Shown: piece by piece, positions 28,716 through 62,551 of the stretch | Numbering within the stretch: position 1 is the first letter of the stretch | How the letters are laid out: each line of letters starts with the position of its first letter | From: Escherichia phage ECP2303 | Length of the DNA stretch: 64,000 bases | Sequence record: PP261279.1 | Direction: 5' to 3' (one strand) | Notes under the pieces: generated by a model | What the model saw: only the letters and a program-made list of their open reading frames with translations | What the model was told of the DNA's origin: nothing | The model's database searches: none | Translations under genes and position numbers: made by a program

Positions 28716-28792
28716 TGGTCTCCACGGAGTGATTCGAACACTCGACCTCCTGATCCCAAATCAGGCGCTCTACCAAGCTGAGCTACGCGGAG
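28716..28792 (-). tRNA. tRNA-Pro (anticodon UGG)
   Basis: Hand-folded cloverleaf: acceptor with C1-G72, D-arm GCTCAGCTTGGTAGAGC, anticodon loop UUUGGGA, T-arm GAGTG-TTCGAAT-CACTC, CCA encoded. Confidence 0.7.
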
Positions 28793-28803
28793 TATTTATT
28801 ATT

Positions 28804-28878
28804 TGGTGGCCCTGGGTGGAATTGAACCACCGTCTGGCGATTATGAGTCGCTTGCTTGAACCTTCCAGCTACAGGGCC
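28804..28878 (-). tRNA. tRNA-Met (anticodon CAU; initiator-like loop CUCAUAA)
   Basis: Acceptor GGCCCTG/CAGGGCC, anticodon loop CUCAUAA, T-arm GGTGG-TTCAATT-CCACC, CCA encoded; could alternatively be a lysidine-modified Ile tRNA. Confidence 0.6.
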
Positions 28879-28879
28879 A

Positions 28880-28955
28880 TGGTGCTGATGGCAGGACTTG
28901 AACCTGCAACCTATTGATTACAAATCAATTGCACTGACAATTGTGCTACATCAGC
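28880..28955 (-). tRNA. tRNA-Thr (anticodon UGU)
   Basis: Acceptor GCTGATG/CATCAGC, D-stem GCAC/GTGC, anticodon stem ATTGA/TCAAT with loop UUUGUAA, T-arm GCAGG-TTCAAGT-CCTGC, CCA encoded; 1-nt spacer from tRNA-Met. Confidence 0.7.
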
Positions 28956-28959
28956 AAAA

Positions 28960-29058
28960 GGTGCTAGGTGATGGAATCGAACCACCTATGTATTCAACGA
29001 CTACCTCGTCTATTTTCAGGATTAAAAATCCTCGCCCTTGCCAAAGGGCTTACCTAGC
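28960..29058 (-). tRNA. atypical tRNA-like gene (99 nt; Lys-type UUUUUAA anticodon loop; ~30-nt insertion before the T-arm)
   Basis: Perfect 7-bp acceptor (GCTAGGT/ACCTAGC), D-arm GCCC-TTTGGCAA-GGGC, 4-bp anticodon stem AGGA/TCCT with loop UUUUUAA, extra hairpin ACGA-GGTAG-TCGT, T-arm GGTGG-TTCGATT-CCATC; too long for a canonical type I tRNA and not folding as a standard type II. Confidence 0.35.
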
Positions 29059-29156
29059 GCAATATGTTGACCATGTGGCTAGTCGGCGATGACGACTGTA
29101 ACATTTGATAATCCGGTTCTGCTTCCGGCTTTCGCTTAATTACAAGGTCAACAATG

Positions 29157-29247
29157 TGGCGGAGAGTAATGGAATCGAACCATCATCGAGTTATCCTCAA
29201 CGGGACGGTTTTCAAGACCGCTTGAGCACCATTGCTCCCTACCCTCC
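29157..29247 (-). tRNA. tRNA-Ser (anticodon UGA), type II
   Basis: Anticodon arm GCGGT-CUUGAAA-ACCGT nearly identical to E. coli tRNA-Ser(UGA); long variable arm; T-arm GATGG-TTCGATT-CCATT; CCA encoded; 91 nt. Confidence 0.7.
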
Positions 29248-29361
29248 TTTATAAATTACACTGATAATGACACTGATTTTCGAGCAGTTAGTGACTAGTA
29301 TAAACGACGATAAATATCAATGTCATTATCTGTATGATTTATGCATTTAAAAATATAAATT

Positions 29362-29448
29362 TGGTGGGGAGTGGTGGAGTCGAACCACCCGAGTCGCAAT
29401 GACAATAGATTTACAGTCTACACCGCTACCTCTACGGGATAACTCCCC
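29362..29448 (-). tRNA. tRNA-Tyr (anticodon GUA), type II
   Basis: Anticodon arm GTAGA-CUGUAAA-TCTAT and variable region TGTCATTGCGACTCG resemble E. coli tRNA-Tyr; T-arm GGTGG-TTCGACT-CCACC; CCA encoded; 87 nt. Confidence 0.65.
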
Positions 29449-29452
29449 AATT

Positions 29453-29527
29453 TGGCACCCCGTACTGGACTCGAACCAGTGTCAACGGCTTAGAAGGCCG
29501 CTGCTTTATCCACTAAGCTAACAGGGC
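29453..29527 (-). tRNA. tRNA-Arg (anticodon UCU)
   Basis: Acceptor GCCCTGT/ACGGGGT (two G-U pairs), D-stem GCTT/AAGC, anticodon stem GCGGC/GCCGT with loop CUUCUAA, T-arm ACTGG-TTCGAGT-CCAGT, CCA encoded. Confidence 0.65.
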
Positions 29528-31404: not shown

Positions 31405-31908
31405 AGCAGACTCCTCTTCAAGTTATAGAAAAACTCACTGTATCGCTTTGTAACGAGCTTTTCTATCAAACTGGTGCGATTGCCTTACTTGGTATAGTTT
31501 ATATAGCTGTGGAGCGATTTAGGGGCCTTCTTGTCAGTTTCCACACATAAACTTTATCCGAACTCGCGCGGGAGGCTCTCAACCGACTCCTTCCGGCGCT
31601 GGCAAGCTTTCGTCGGTGGTACACATTAGTGCTCGGCCTTTGGCCTGCGCTATCGCTTCGCTCCCACACATGTTAACAGTCCTGCATGTATGCACTTCTG
31701 TTATTGTGTGCACTATGGAGGCCCGGCATCTCGCCCCTCGTAGGCGAGTGCCAATGAAGGGCCGACACTACCCATAATAAGTAATAAATTTAAAACATGG
31801 TACTTAGGATCTAGTATATTCTACATAAGTTAAGTATATGTACTTTAGTACCATAAGTACTAGATCTTTTATTTTTATTATTTAGTTATTTTAGTTATAT
31901 TCTTTATG

Positions 31909-31989
31909 TGTCCGTATCACGGACAGTTAGTGTCCGTATTACGGGCAGATGTGTCCGCGTGACGGACAGTAGTGTCCGTATCACGGACA
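31909..31989. repeat. array of four 17-bp palindromic iterons (TGTCCGT-ATC-ACGGACA) phased at 21-22 bp
   Basis: Copies at 31909-31925, 31931-31947 (variant), 31952-31968 (variant centre), 31973-31989; each has 7-bp inverted arms; read directly from sequence. Confidence 0.85.
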
Positions 31990-32064
31990 GTTACTAACCT
32001 CTGTTCCAGAGTGAACATAAAACATACAAATCCTTATAGTACAGATGTTTAAGTTTTTACTGGT

Positions 32065-38826: not shown

Positions 38827-38855
38827 TTGACATGACCACATGGATGTGGTATTGT
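38827..38855 (+). promoter_or_regulatory. sigma70-type promoter with palindrome in the spacer
   Basis: TTGACA, 17-nt spacer containing CCACATGGATGTGG, then TATTGT. Confidence 0.4.
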
Positions 38856-38886
38856 TACCCAGTAAAATGTTAAGGAGAGTTTAACC

Positions 38887-39093
38887 ATGAAAGATTTTCT
38901 GTTGGCAATTTTATTCATGGCAGCATGCTTTGCCTGTGGTGTCGTGTTTGCAGGTGAAACAGCGTATCTTGTAGATGTATATCGGGACAATGGTAAACGT
39001 ATTTGCCTTTATGAAACAAGCCAAGGTGAGCTCTACGAGCTTGTGAAACAAGGCGAGGCTGGATCTTGTCCTCGGACTCACTTCTTCGAATAA
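38887..39093 (+). CDS. small secreted/lipoprotein-like protein
   Basis: 68 aa; hydrophobic N-terminus with Cys cluster (MAACFACG); AAGGAG RBS; adjacent to endolysin. Confidence 0.4.
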   Translation: MKDFLLAILFMAACFACGVVFAGETAYLVDVYRDNGKRICLYETSQGELYELVKQGEAGSCPRTHFFE

Positions 39094-41569: not shown

Positions 41570-41892
41570 TGACTAAAAATTCTGTAGATAATGCAATTAT
41601 GGAAGCTGTTTTTGAGGATGACCATACAACAGGTACCATTAAAACAAAAAATACATTTATTGTTGCCACAGGTATGTGGCGGTTGTATGAAGATGACACT
41701 ATTGCATACATCCTGTATACTGATGATTACGCAGATGATCGTGTATGGTCTGCTGTTTTAAAAGAGGATTGCGAGCTGATTGAGGGCGAGCGGTTATGCA
41801 TGTTTACCAGCGTGGAAACAGACGTTAAGCTTTGCTCTCTTGTGCTATTCAAAGACAAAGCTTATTCTCCAGATGAAGAGGAAACAGCATGA
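41566..41892 (+). CDS. hypothetical protein
   Basis: 108-aa acidic ORF. Confidence 0.35.
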   Translation: MMTKNSVDNAIMEAVFEDDHTTGTIKTKNTFIVATGMWRLYEDDTIAYILYTDDYADDRVWSAVLKEDCELIEGERLCMFTSVETDVKLCSLVLFKDKAYSPDEEETA

Positions 41893-42518
41893 GAGAAAGA
41901 CTGCTGTCTATAGACCAGTCTCTTACCCACACAGCCTGTGTTGTATGGGACGATGGTAGGCCTGTTCATAAGGTTGTGTTACGCACACAAAGCTCATCTG
42001 CAAAAGAGAAGAAACCAGGGACGGTTTCTTTTGCAACAGCTGCTGAGCGTATTGACTGGATCTGCAAACAGGTTAGATATTATATCCACACGCACGGCGT
42101 TGACACCGTGGTTATGGAAGGGCTCTCCTTCGGATCGCGAGGAGATGCCACACGTGAACTGGCTGGGTTGTTTTACGGTCTTGAAGTTATGCTTTGGGAT
42201 GCTTTAGCAGATTGTGAAAATGACGGCCTGTTTAAGGTTCACACAGTGACACCAACAACTGCCAAAAAGTTTGCTCGTAGTCATCTTCCTGAAGAACTTG
42301 CTTTTGAGGAGAAGAAAAAGCTTGACAAAAGGACAGGTAAAGAGCATACTGTGAAGAAACCTGTTACGATGGATAAAAAGTTGATGGTTAAGGCCTGTGA
42401 AGTATCTGAACCTGGGTTCCTGGATGGGATCAACTTGGTACAAGGTAAGGCCGATCTCGCAGATGCTTATTGGATAGGTAGGGCGCATCTGGAGGGATTA
42501 TCGCAAAGCGTAAAATAA
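41889..42518 (+). CDS. RuvC-like Holliday junction resolvase
   Basis: N-terminal LSIDQSLTHTACVVWD and central MEGLSFGSRGDATRELAGL fit the RNase H-fold RuvC/resolvase pattern. Confidence 0.65.
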   Translation: MRERLLSIDQSLTHTACVVWDDGRPVHKVVLRTQSSSAKEKKPGTVSFATAAERIDWICKQVRYYIHTHGVDTVVMEGLSFGSRGDATRELAGLFYGLEVMLWDALADCENDGLFKVHTVTPTTAKKFARSHLPEELAFEEKKKLDKRTGKEHTVKKPVTMDKKLMVKACEVSEPGFLDGINLVQGKADLADAYWIGRAHLEGLSQSVK

Positions 42519-54764: not shown

Positions 54765-54794
54765 TTGACAAAAGCCACAAGGATGTGGCATATT
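54765..54794 (+). promoter_or_regulatory. sigma70-type promoter with palindrome in the spacer
   Basis: TTGACA, 18-nt spacer containing CCACAAGGATGTGG, then CATATT. Confidence 0.35.
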
Positions 54795-54824
54795 ATTGGC
54801 ACACAGTGAGCTAGGAGGTACAGT

Positions 54825-54941
54825 ATGTCTAAAGGTATTTATAAAATTTGCAAGTGTGGTTGTCGTTGTAATCTTCGGTGGTGCAAGGCATTAGACGATT
54901 TTATTTGGCATTGCCCTAAATGCGATGCGGAGTACTTATAA
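54825..54941 (+). CDS. small Cys-rich zinc-ribbon protein (38 aa)
   Basis: ATG with strong RBS TAGGAGGT; CKCGCRC...CPKCD pattern; below the ORF-track size cutoff. Confidence 0.4.
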   Translation: MSKGIYKICKCGCRCNLRWCKALDDFIWHCPKCDAEYL

Positions 54942-60210: not shown

Positions 60211-60247
60211 TAATTTATCTTACCAGGGACGGTAGGTAGGAGGTAGC

Positions 60248-60481
60248 ATGAAAGTTAAATTTCTTACAGATTTAGGGTACCCTTCCTTGGTTGACTGTGT
60301 TGGTAAAATTGTGGAAGCAAAACGGCTATCTGCAAACGAGAATGTTGTCCTGGTTAAAGGGAAGGATTTACTAGCTGCAGGTGCAGAGTCTGGCAGGATC
60401 TCTCCTGATTATATGTATTACCTATCTTTAAGTAATCTGCCAGAGCGAGGCGGTAAAGGCCTTGAAGTTGTGGAGGAGTGA
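60248..60481 (+). CDS. hypothetical protein
   Basis: 77-aa ORF with AGGAGG RBS. Confidence 0.4.
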   Translation: MKVKFLTDLGYPSLVDCVGKIVEAKRLSANENVVLVKGKDLLAAGAESGRISPDYMYYLSLSNLPERGGKGLEVVEE

Positions 60482-61674: not shown

Positions 61675-62141
61675 CGATGTTTGTTAAATATGTAAAAACG
61701 TGCCTCAACAGTCTTGGCAGAGAGCATTGGTACACCTTGCTTGAAAAAGGGGAAATTTTAACAAAATCTGGAAAGATAACTTTGATACCTCTTGATAGTA
61801 AAGGTAAAGACCCGTCACGACTTGTTATAGATGATTACGTTACAGGTGTGACGTTCGAGGTCTCTGTGGAGAGGTTAATACGCAGAGCTGGCGGCCCTTA
61901 TGACCGAAGAGAGTATGTTTTCGATTCCGTTACAGAGATGGGGGAGCATCCGTCTTTAATGTTCAGGATGGTAATCAGAGATATGAGGTCATCTATAGAT
62001 AGGATCGTAAAGGACATTAAGGAACCTTTTAGAGTAAAAGTTAAGAAGTTTTTCGATTCTAAGATTAACATACTCGCCGTTGCACTAGGTGTAGTTCAAC
62101 TTCTGTTAATTTTGCACTATTTTGAACTACTATTTAAGTAG
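61671..62141 (+). CDS. hypothetical protein with C-terminal transmembrane anchor
   Basis: 156 aa, hydrophobic C-terminus (ILAVALGVVQLLLILHYF). Confidence 0.4.
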   Translation: MTMFVKYVKTCLNSLGREHWYTLLEKGEILTKSGKITLIPLDSKGKDPSRLVIDDYVTGVTFEVSVERLIRRAGGPYDRREYVFDSVTEMGEHPSLMFRMVIRDMRSSIDRIVKDIKEPFRVKVKKFFDSKINILAVALGVVQLLLILHYFELLFK

Positions 62142-62203
62142 TAGTTGAGATATGGCACAAAGGATGTGCCATAGTGAAATAAACTAAGAAAGAGGTAGAG
62201 AGA

Positions 62204-62551
62204 ATGCCAAAGATTAAAACGTTATTACTGTGGGTAGCTGTTTTAGCTTTTATAGGGTACTGGACTTGGGAAACTGAATTAAAAGATATCGGATATACCA
62301 GTCTTGAGAGCAAGGCGTGCATTGGCATAACCGATGCGTTCAGGCAAAATGCTATGGATCACGAATGTGTTGATGCAGATATAGATGAGAAACTGTCTAA
62401 GGACAAAGATTTTTACCATGGGTATGCTTTACTTGATAGTGGTGACACTGTAGAGTTCTGGTCGTGGTTTCGTGAAGATGGAACAATAAAAACAGCAGTA
62501 AAGATCTCTAACAAAGAGTTAATGCTGTTGCAGCAAAAGGAGGCTCAATGA
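62204..62551 (+). CDS. hypothetical secreted/membrane-anchored protein
   Basis: 115 aa, N-terminal signal-anchor-like helix; AGAGG RBS. Confidence 0.4.
   Translation: MPKIKTLLLWVAVLAFIGYWTWETELKDIGYTSLESKACIGITDAFRQNAMDHECVDADIDEKLSKDKDFYHGYALLDSGDTVEFWSWFREDGTIKTAVKISNKELMLLQQKEAQ

Follow-up and report, generated by a model that had tools for sequence, protein, structure and literature searches.

Promoter-spacer palindromes of a Vequintavirus as possible DNA images of a CsrA-type RNA stem-loop family

The stretch of DNA analysed here (the window, 64,000 nucleotides) corresponds, with two mismatches, to positions 64461-128460 on the plus strand of Escherichia phage ECP2309 (PP464953.1, Vequintavirus, 136,863 bp), which served for all whole-genome counts and genome coordinates; positions are those of the window unless marked as genome positions. 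Within a rightward early/middle gene cluster made up of DNA metabolism genes and small ORFs, one imperfect palindrome recurs at 38836-38849 (CCACATGGATGTGG, site 1), 54775-54788 (CCACAAGGATGTGG, site 2) and 62154-62168 (GCACAAAGGATGTGC, site 3), three sequences which had been pointed out in an earlier reading of the letters alone (the sequence-only reading) and which were verified. Downstream of site 1 lies a 68-aa lipobox-like ORF (38887-39093) that adjoins the endolysin gene, downstream of site 2 a 38-aa Cys-rich ORF (54825-54941) and downstream of site 3 a 115-aa ORF (62204-62551). The Cys-rich ORF (MSKGIYKICKCGCRCNLRWCK...) is located between nrdD and nrdG, is without annotation in the ECP2309 record and matches PHROG 20137, labelled 'ribonucleotide reductase' (E = 4e-31). 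Directly 5' of site 3 an AT-rich hairpin (AACTACTA-tttaag-TAGTAGTT, 62125-62146) covers both the upstream stop codon and the hexamer TTGAGA. The features of the three sites and of the related hairpins discussed below are compiled in Table 1.

Table 1. Promoter elements, Shine-Dalgarno sequences and hairpins at sites 1-3, related hairpins elsewhere in the genome, and the hairpin that follows nrdD in other Vequintavirinae (window positions unless marked as genome)
Feature	Position	Strand	Remarks
Site 1 promoter TTGACA-N17-TATTGT	38827..38855	+	sigma-70 type, 10/12, extended -10
Site 1 hairpin ACCACA-TGGA-TGTGGT	38835..38850	+	RNA stem ACCAC/GUGGU, loop A-N-GGA-N
Shine-Dalgarno AAGGAG of the 68-aa ORF	38872..38877	+	GGA 32 nt past loop GGA
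Degenerate in-CDS relative GCCACA-GGTA-TGTGGC	41665..41680	+	homologous hairpin of another genus has loop AGGGAT
In-CDS member AAGAAACC-AGGGAC-GGTTTCTT	42009..42030	+	kept in three Vequintavirus genomes
Site 2 promoter-like TTGACA-N18-CATATT	54765..54794	+	10/12, TG before -10
Site 2 hairpin GCCACA-AGGA-TGTGGC	54774..54789	+	hexaloop AAGGAU
Shine-Dalgarno AGGAGG of the 38-aa ORF	54814..54819	+	GGA 34 nt past loop GGA
Intergenic member TACC-AGGGAC-GGTA	60221..60234 (genome 124685)	+	promoter-less; 3 nt 5' of AGGAGG
TTGAGA, putative -35 of the sequence-only reading	62145..62150	+	aligns with TATAAT of L342
Site 3 hairpin TATGGCACA-AAGGA-TGTGCCATA	62151..62173	+	heptaloop AAAGGAU, fold z = -4.9
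Intergenic member	genome 21195	sense	promoter-less; Shine-Dalgarno GGA 23 nt downstream
Intergenic member	genome 54821	sense	promoter-less; terminator-like
Intergenic member	genome 130417	sense	promoter-less; downstream Shine-Dalgarno without GGA
Post-nrdD hairpin GCCAC-AAGGAT-GTGGC, ECP2309 and L342			inside promoter spacer
Post-nrdD hairpin ATGCAC-AAGGAT-GTGCAT, L343 and L347			promoter-less; 6 nt 5' of nrdG Shine-Dalgarno
Post-nrdD hairpin ATGTGC-AGGGAC-GCACAT, L346			promoter-less
Post-nrdD hairpin GAGAGC-AAGGAT-GCTCTC, A135 and A141			followed by T-run, canonical terminator
Post-nrdD hairpin GCC-TAAGGAT-GGC, L345			weaker
Post-nrdD hairpin, L344			loop unrelated

As to the extent of the palindrome, its coordinates were found to hold, with the full hairpins being slightly longer on both sides (Table 1). 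In the DNA, arms of 6, 6 and 9 bp enclose the centres TGGA (site 1), AGGA (site 2) and AAGGA (site 3). Written as RNA, the minimum-energy folds contain a hexaloop AUGGAU at site 1, a hexaloop AAGGAU at site 2 and a heptaloop AAAGGAU at site 3, the folding energies amounting to -12.5, -9.3 and -12.5 kcal/mol, respectively. Within the window, the pattern CACA-N1-3-GGATGTG occurs three times, always on the plus strand, as compared to 0.12 expected copies, and at least three copies were obtained in none of 100 shuffles; for the relaxed pattern CACA-N1-2-GGA-N-GTG three copies stand against 0.21 expected. The genome-wide motif search that the sequence-only reading had asked for recovered, with the strict pattern, sites 1-3 as the sole copies in the 137-kb genome, while the relaxed pattern yielded a fourth match at genome 21198, likewise in sense orientation. 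These four copies compare to a simulated mean of 0.61, and four were reached in 0 of 100 simulations, so that the frequency exceeds chance in the full genome as well. Counts above expectation and predicted RNA folds at all three sites hence bear out the description of the motif as a non-random, hairpin-forming palindrome.

The sequence-only reading had further placed the palindrome into a promoter spacer at each site. This placement stands for sites 1 and 2, which possess TTGACA promoters; at site 3 TTGAGA does precede the palindrome, but is not a credible -35 element. Here, TTGAGA-N19-CATAGT was flagged by none of the promoter scans, and in a close relative (L342) a TTGAAT-N16-TATAAT promoter is located 5' of the hairpin, with its -10 hexamer TATAAT aligned to TTGAGA, which is hence probably not a -35. 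L342 keeps the site 3 hairpin as GGCAC-AAAGGAT-GTGCC, 2 nt past that promoter. At sites 1 and 2 the TG of the extended -10 is part of the TGTG in the 3' arm of the hairpin. Extended -10 regions were assigned to 11 of the 33 promoters predicted in the rV5 genome paper, and GGATGTG is absent from the promoter table given there. A more distant genus retains, at the locus of site 1, a TTGACA-N17-TATACT promoter with an unrelated spacer and without the hairpin. Concerning termination, the site 2 hairpin together with ATATTATT was flagged as terminator-like and is the sole one of the three to pass a simple terminator scan, and a U-tract is absent at sites 1 and 3. In the promoter and terminator scans, the interval from the upstream stop codon to the hairpin was free of terminators.

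Hairpins of the same type are not confined to promoters. A census of the whole genome for A-N-GGA-N hexaloops on stems of at least 4 bp gave nine hairpins as compared to about 4.7 expected, eight of them on the sense strand; of the intergenic hexaloop hairpins, 6 of 85 in sense orientation and 0 of 85 in antisense have an ANGGAN loop, as do 3 of 1114 in coding sequences with both strands taken together, whereby all of these statistics are post hoc, the class having been defined after the motif was seen. When the site 3 heptaloop is included, there are seven intergenic members, all of which are recovered when the respective intergenic RNA is folded to minimum energy, and promoter hexamers are touched by sites 1-3 only. 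Several of the promoter-less members are without a U-tract. The member at 60221 is followed by the Shine-Dalgarno sequence AGGAGG (60238-60243) of an ORF starting at 60248, with the two GGA triplets being 12 nt apart.

Comparison across the Vequintavirinae revealed the same strand preference. Three other Vequintavirus genomes retain the sites; sense and antisense ANGGAN hairpins number 6 versus 0 in L162, 6 versus 0 in L163 and 5 versus 0 in L164, and in the loci from other genera (L343-L347), 12 sense hairpins with stems of at least 5 bp stand against one in antisense; a Justusliebigvirus (phi92-like) of the same host range contained no ANGGAN hairpin. In most relatives site 1 is present as ACCAC-ACGGAC-GTGGT (Gotham, EmilHeitz, A135 and metagenome contigs), with substitutions confined to the loop's two N positions, and all three orthologues recovered in a metagenome scan represent this ACGGAC variant; in A141, AGA replaces the GGA of the loop. 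The site 2 hairpin is identical in L016/L342 and EmilHeitz. The 60221 site is conserved in L162-L164, and its homologue in L342 (TGCC-AAGGAT-GGCA) combines a compensatory stem change with a loop that is altered at N positions only. Another site is found as GGTAC-AAGGAT-GTACC in one lineage and as TTACAC-AAGGAT-GTGTAA in another. In other Vequintavirinae, including a genus with NrdD 80-84% identical, the hairpin located immediately behind the nrdD stop codon keeps the loop on four different stems and mostly lacks a promoter (Table 1), the stem diversity being displayed in an alignment (A1) whose sequences were selected by construction. Constancy of the loop, combined with changing stems and with promoters that are present in some lineages and absent in others, points to an element read in single-stranded form, through its loop, from the transcribed strand, and not to a duplex operator; a loop-specific RNA element that is independent of promoters is considered the likely nature of the motif.

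The nrdD region itself differs between these genomes. In A135 (L163 17440-18565), and at the same place in L164, nrdD and the Cys-rich ORF are separated by an inserted 321-aa ORF, which contains repeated 'GDKYDY..V.Y.N...V.IICPEHG' modules and by eye resembles a free-standing homing endonuclease. The insert replaces site 2 and brings along a terminator with an AAGGAT loop and a promoter of its own. The 'Campylobacter phage' records (A135 etc.) are unverified Vequintavirus genomes. In EmilHeitz (L162 14755-17462) nrdD is annotated as two joined pieces with a putative homing endonuclease gene within, which suggests interruption by an intron, while nrdD of ECP2309 is uninterrupted.

A loop of this kind is known from the RNA ligands of CsrA. 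The SELEX consensus of E. coli CsrA is RUACARGGAUGU, in which ACA and GGA are invariant, GU is nearly so and GGA resides in a hairpin loop, and structures of RsmE contain an ANGGAN hexaloop. Site 2 (ACAAGGAUGU) agrees with this consensus at 10 of 12 positions and site 1 (ACAUGGAUGU) at 9 of 12, and consensus-like loops are likewise present at site 3 (ACAAAGGAUGU) and at genome 21198 (ACACGGAAGU). The flanks ACA and GU are found at all four, with the first two consensus positions (RU) being unmatched, and at sites 1-3 the loop is closed by a C-G pair and flanked by AC...GU. The repeat units of CsrB are of the same form (e.g., ACTTCAGGATGAAGT), a resemblance which is qualitative, given that an ANGGAN hexaloop search of CsrB found one unit, most units being CAGGAUG pentaloops. 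In glgC, a high-affinity hairpin just 5' of the Shine-Dalgarno sequence tethers the CsrA dimer, which then bridges to the Shine-Dalgarno sequence. Like the CsrA/RsmA hairpins of glgC, CsrB and RsmE-hcnA, for which bridging spans 10-63 nt, several of the phage hairpins stand just 5' of a Shine-Dalgarno sequence with a second GGA, which follows 12-34 nt downstream at sites 1, 2, 60221, 21195 and in several homologues and fits bridging between two sites; this GGA is absent at site 3 and genome 130417, and many Shine-Dalgarno sequences contain GGA anyway. Occurrence on the sense strand only is a further common trait. Differences from these hairpins are that the phage copies belong to a lytic phage genome, that three of them lie 5' of the start site of an overlapping promoter and would act on read-through RNA only, and that their stems are longer: 5-9 bp, as compared to at most 4 bp for most SELEX ligands, with very stable stems possibly disfavouring CsrA.

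A further parallel is provided by ColE7, where the loop of the intercistronic terminator T1 and the cel Shine-Dalgarno sequence both bind CsrA and a small lysis lipoprotein is repressed 4-5-fold (PMC2896534). T1/cel shares with the phage sites an intercistronic, attenuator-type hairpin, the location on a mobile element and the combination of loop GGA with a Shine-Dalgarno site; the T1 loop agrees with the consensus at 9 of 12 positions, and the small lipoprotein downstream is reminiscent of the lipobox-like ORF next to the endolysin gene. The post-nrdD hairpin of A135/A141 is, like T1, a true terminator and carries the loop of the phage family. Unlike sites 1 and 2, T1 has no promoter superimposed on its hairpin.

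A tblastn search of the genome with E. coli CsrA gave a best hit of E = 1.2, and a phage-encoded CsrA was rejected. With the phage being without a CsrA homologue, CsrA of the host is the candidate. The sequence-only reading had identified no candidate regulator; host CsrA can now be named, since loop and flanks match its consensus RNA site, and from this match we put its being the ligand of the hairpins at about even chances. Of comparable strength is the overall proposal, for which the odds appear balanced, that the palindrome is the DNA image of a CsrA-type RNA stem-loop family that has become partly interleaved with promoters. Wiring of lytic coliphage genes to CsrA was not described in the literature searched, which yielded no Vequintavirus transcriptome either.

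According to this proposal, the Vequintavirinae keep such hairpins on the transcribed strand of short intergenic regions, from a few to about 35 nt 5' of the Shine-Dalgarno sequence. With no terminator ahead of them, the hairpins are expected to be included at the 3' end of transcripts of the upstream gene. A CsrA dimer anchored to the hairpin of such a read-through transcript would bridge to the GGA of the downstream Shine-Dalgarno sequence, which may reduce translation of the gene that follows or affect the stability or termination of the RNA, in the manner of glgC and ColE7 T1/cel. Three of the hairpins would in addition be interleaved with sigma-70 promoters in a PeSL-like composite (see below), whereby the TGTG arm doubles as extended -10. 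At sites 1 and 2 the hairpin lies 5' of the predicted start site; internally initiated RNA is therefore devoid of it, and it cannot act on transcripts of its own promoter. It would thus be present solely on read-through RNA from the endolysin and nrdD genes, respectively. This leads to the tentative and rather doubtful idea of a promoter-gated CsrA switch with two mRNA isoforms, in which read-through RNA is held down and internal-promoter RNA escapes. If such a switch were true, the small lipoprotein by the endolysin and the nrdD-nrdG junction would be tied to both the transcription programme and the Csr/carbon/growth state. If CsrA binds, rV5-like E. coli phages, which are widespread and therapeutic candidates, would wire a few genes into the host Csr network and their expression would depend on the physiological state of the host, with isoform-specific post-transcriptional control that can be tested.

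A stem-loop interleaved with a promoter is an arrangement already known from T4-type phages. The PeSL cassettes of RB49 and phi1 consist of strong sigma-70 promoters with a stem-loop most often between -35 and -10 (PMC2839356, PMC4122927); this stem-loop terminates or attenuates in vivo, and the cassettes, repeated many times and clustered in hyperplastic regions, mark indels between close relatives and module shuffling, including at nrdD (PMC2839356, PMC4122927). They provide the exact published precedent for the 'terminator-promoter coupler' that the sequence-only reading had offered as an option. The likeness extends to near-consensus sigma-70 promoters, present at sites 1 and 2 and not at site 3, and to the stem-loop being located inside the promoter spacer or on the -10, within the gap that separates a stop codon from the Shine-Dalgarno sequence following it, as well as to the vicinity of nrdD. 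Homology breakpoints versus A135/A141 and L160 coincide with sites 1 and 2, as PeSLs do with module breakpoints, but the indel at site 2 consists of the inserted 321-aa ORF that by eye resembles a homing endonuclease. One may hence regard the sites as plain PeSL-type composites, i.e., as an attenuator, a terminator or a 3'-end stabiliser of the upstream gene that is superimposed on an early promoter and whose loop sequence is functionless. In addition to the precedent of RB49 and phi1, the terminator-like character of site 2 and the canonical terminator that A135/A141 possess after nrdD speak for this reading, as does the finding that further promoters of ECP2309 carry stem-loops over -35 or -10.

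It is also consistent with spacer palindromes in other viruses, for which fractions and a more specific pattern were compared among the IMG/VR matches listed. Among these, TTGACA-N3-5-CCACA-N4-5-TGTGGTA was found in 55 distinct contexts, 41 of which have a proper -10, as compared to 6 of 17 contexts when the 5' arm was permuted to ACACC as a control; among the matches listed, inverted-repeat spacers abutting TGTGG-TAnnnT thus exceed the permuted-arm control about 7-fold (41 vs 6). The loops of the spacer palindromes listed are of every kind, those containing GGA accounting for only 6-7 of the 55, which counts against the CsrA reading. In favour of that reading, the GGA orientation of the loop prevails over its reverse complement in promoter spacers: among the matches listed, 39 of 79 with the former and 11 of 63 with the latter are promoter-like. 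A hairpin in a promoter spacer is not unusual; palindromes at this position are common in phages (PeSL-like) and should not automatically be taken for operators. Against a loop without function it has to be held that such a loop should drift, yet A and GGA are fixed while the stems are replaced across genera, and that the ANGGAN enrichment is confined to the intergenic sense strand. Moreover, a U-tract is absent at sites 1 and 3 and in several promoter-less members, and the stems are weak for terminators. PeSL stems are G-run/C-run stems, are numerous and were shown to terminate, whereas the phage studied here has CACA/TGTG arms, only three promoter-overlapping copies, a conserved loop and U-tracts that are poor or absent. 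On balance, a plain PeSL-type composite is possible but has a limited probability.

Several side observations concern similar arrangements. In three unrelated viral contigs of 31-64 kb, promoter-like sites of the form TTGACA-...CACA-NGGA-TGTG... with a -10 hexamer occur repeatedly, namely twice each in 3300030019_000047 and 3300030002_000081 (L007/L091) and four times in 3300020045_009460 (L032, L042, L058). In L007/L091 and at two of the L058 sites the promoter is followed by similar, structured-looking sequence (...atcgggaagcggggaccccgaatcgaaacccc) without an obvious ORF start, which may represent small RNAs. ECP2309 itself holds three near-identical cassettes (ttagatGGCCTTGACTCCAGGGCCatcaataaagTAAAyT) at genome 6461, 10179 and 10800 (minus strand, outside the window), in each of which a 4-bp stem brackets the -35, and stem-loops over the -35 or the -10 are also present at genome 2049, 9090, 15073 and 104526. 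PeSL-like composites hence seem to be common in this genome.

The pattern of sense-strand, intergenic, loop-conserved hairpins also fits a reader other than CsrA, for example a nuclease or RNA-binding protein encoded by the phage, or a 30S subunit to which the exposed GGA offers a standby, Shine-Dalgarno-like site. The AAGGA loops are Shine-Dalgarno-like, and many of the phage ORFs in the region are without known function. What is conserved, however, is A-N-GGA-N with AC/GU flanks instead of AGGAGG; pairing with the anti-Shine-Dalgarno sequence is poor for the loops AUGGAU, ACGGAC and AGGGAC, the RegB target GGAG does not occur among the loops, and no candidate protein can be named. A non-CsrA reader is therefore judged unlikely.

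Operators in promoter spacers are classic, with lambda OL1/OR1 as an example, and the palindromes resemble them in overlapping the spacer and the -10. In one of its two options, the sequence-only reading had invoked co-regulation of the three promoters by a factor bound within the spacer, which would make the palindrome the operator of a dimeric repressor or activator. The spacer position of the palindrome at sites 1 and 2 agrees with this model, which is nevertheless not sustained by the remaining data and is considered very improbable. In contrast to lambda-type operators, the spacing of the half-sites is not fixed, the centre being either 4 or 5 bp; the outer arm bases covary within the genome (CCACA/TGTGG vs GCACA/TGTGC); and the asymmetric centre is conserved and occurs in a single, strand-specific orientation. 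Furthermore, four same-type hairpins of this genome and the homologues from other genera are without a promoter, and the presumed promoter of site 3 is not credible. Chance, or paralogy of duplicated promoter cassettes without selected function, can practically be dismissed, since 0.12-0.6 copies are expected, the flanks of the three sites are dissimilar and the hairpins persist from genus to genus although their stems change. In favour of this reading are the low number of strict copies (three), the extended -10, which accounts for the TGTG arm, and the visible duplication of other promoter cassettes in the genome.

Further candidates were considered and rejected. As for a sigma-54 promoter, site 3 contains TGGCAC, but there the distance from GG to GC deviates by two, and the GG is missing from sites 1 and 2. 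The long spacers (18-19 nt) would suit a MerR-type activator, yet the palindromes occur without promoters. N4-type hairpin promoters differ in loop type, and we know of no virion RNA polymerase for this phage, which likewise counts against them. Lambda boxB/N-type antitermination and T4 RegB sites do not apply either, the loops being neither GNRA-like nor GGAG.

Elsewhere in the window, an Rfam scan found six tRNAs only, which form a cluster on the minus strand (28719-29527). A non-coding, AT-rich gap of about 660 bp (~31405-32064) harbours four tandem units of 21-22 bp (GTGTCCGTATCACGGACAGTTA) at 31908-31993, each with the palindrome TGTCCGT-N3-ACGGACA. This iteron- or operator-like array could be an origin or a regulatory site.
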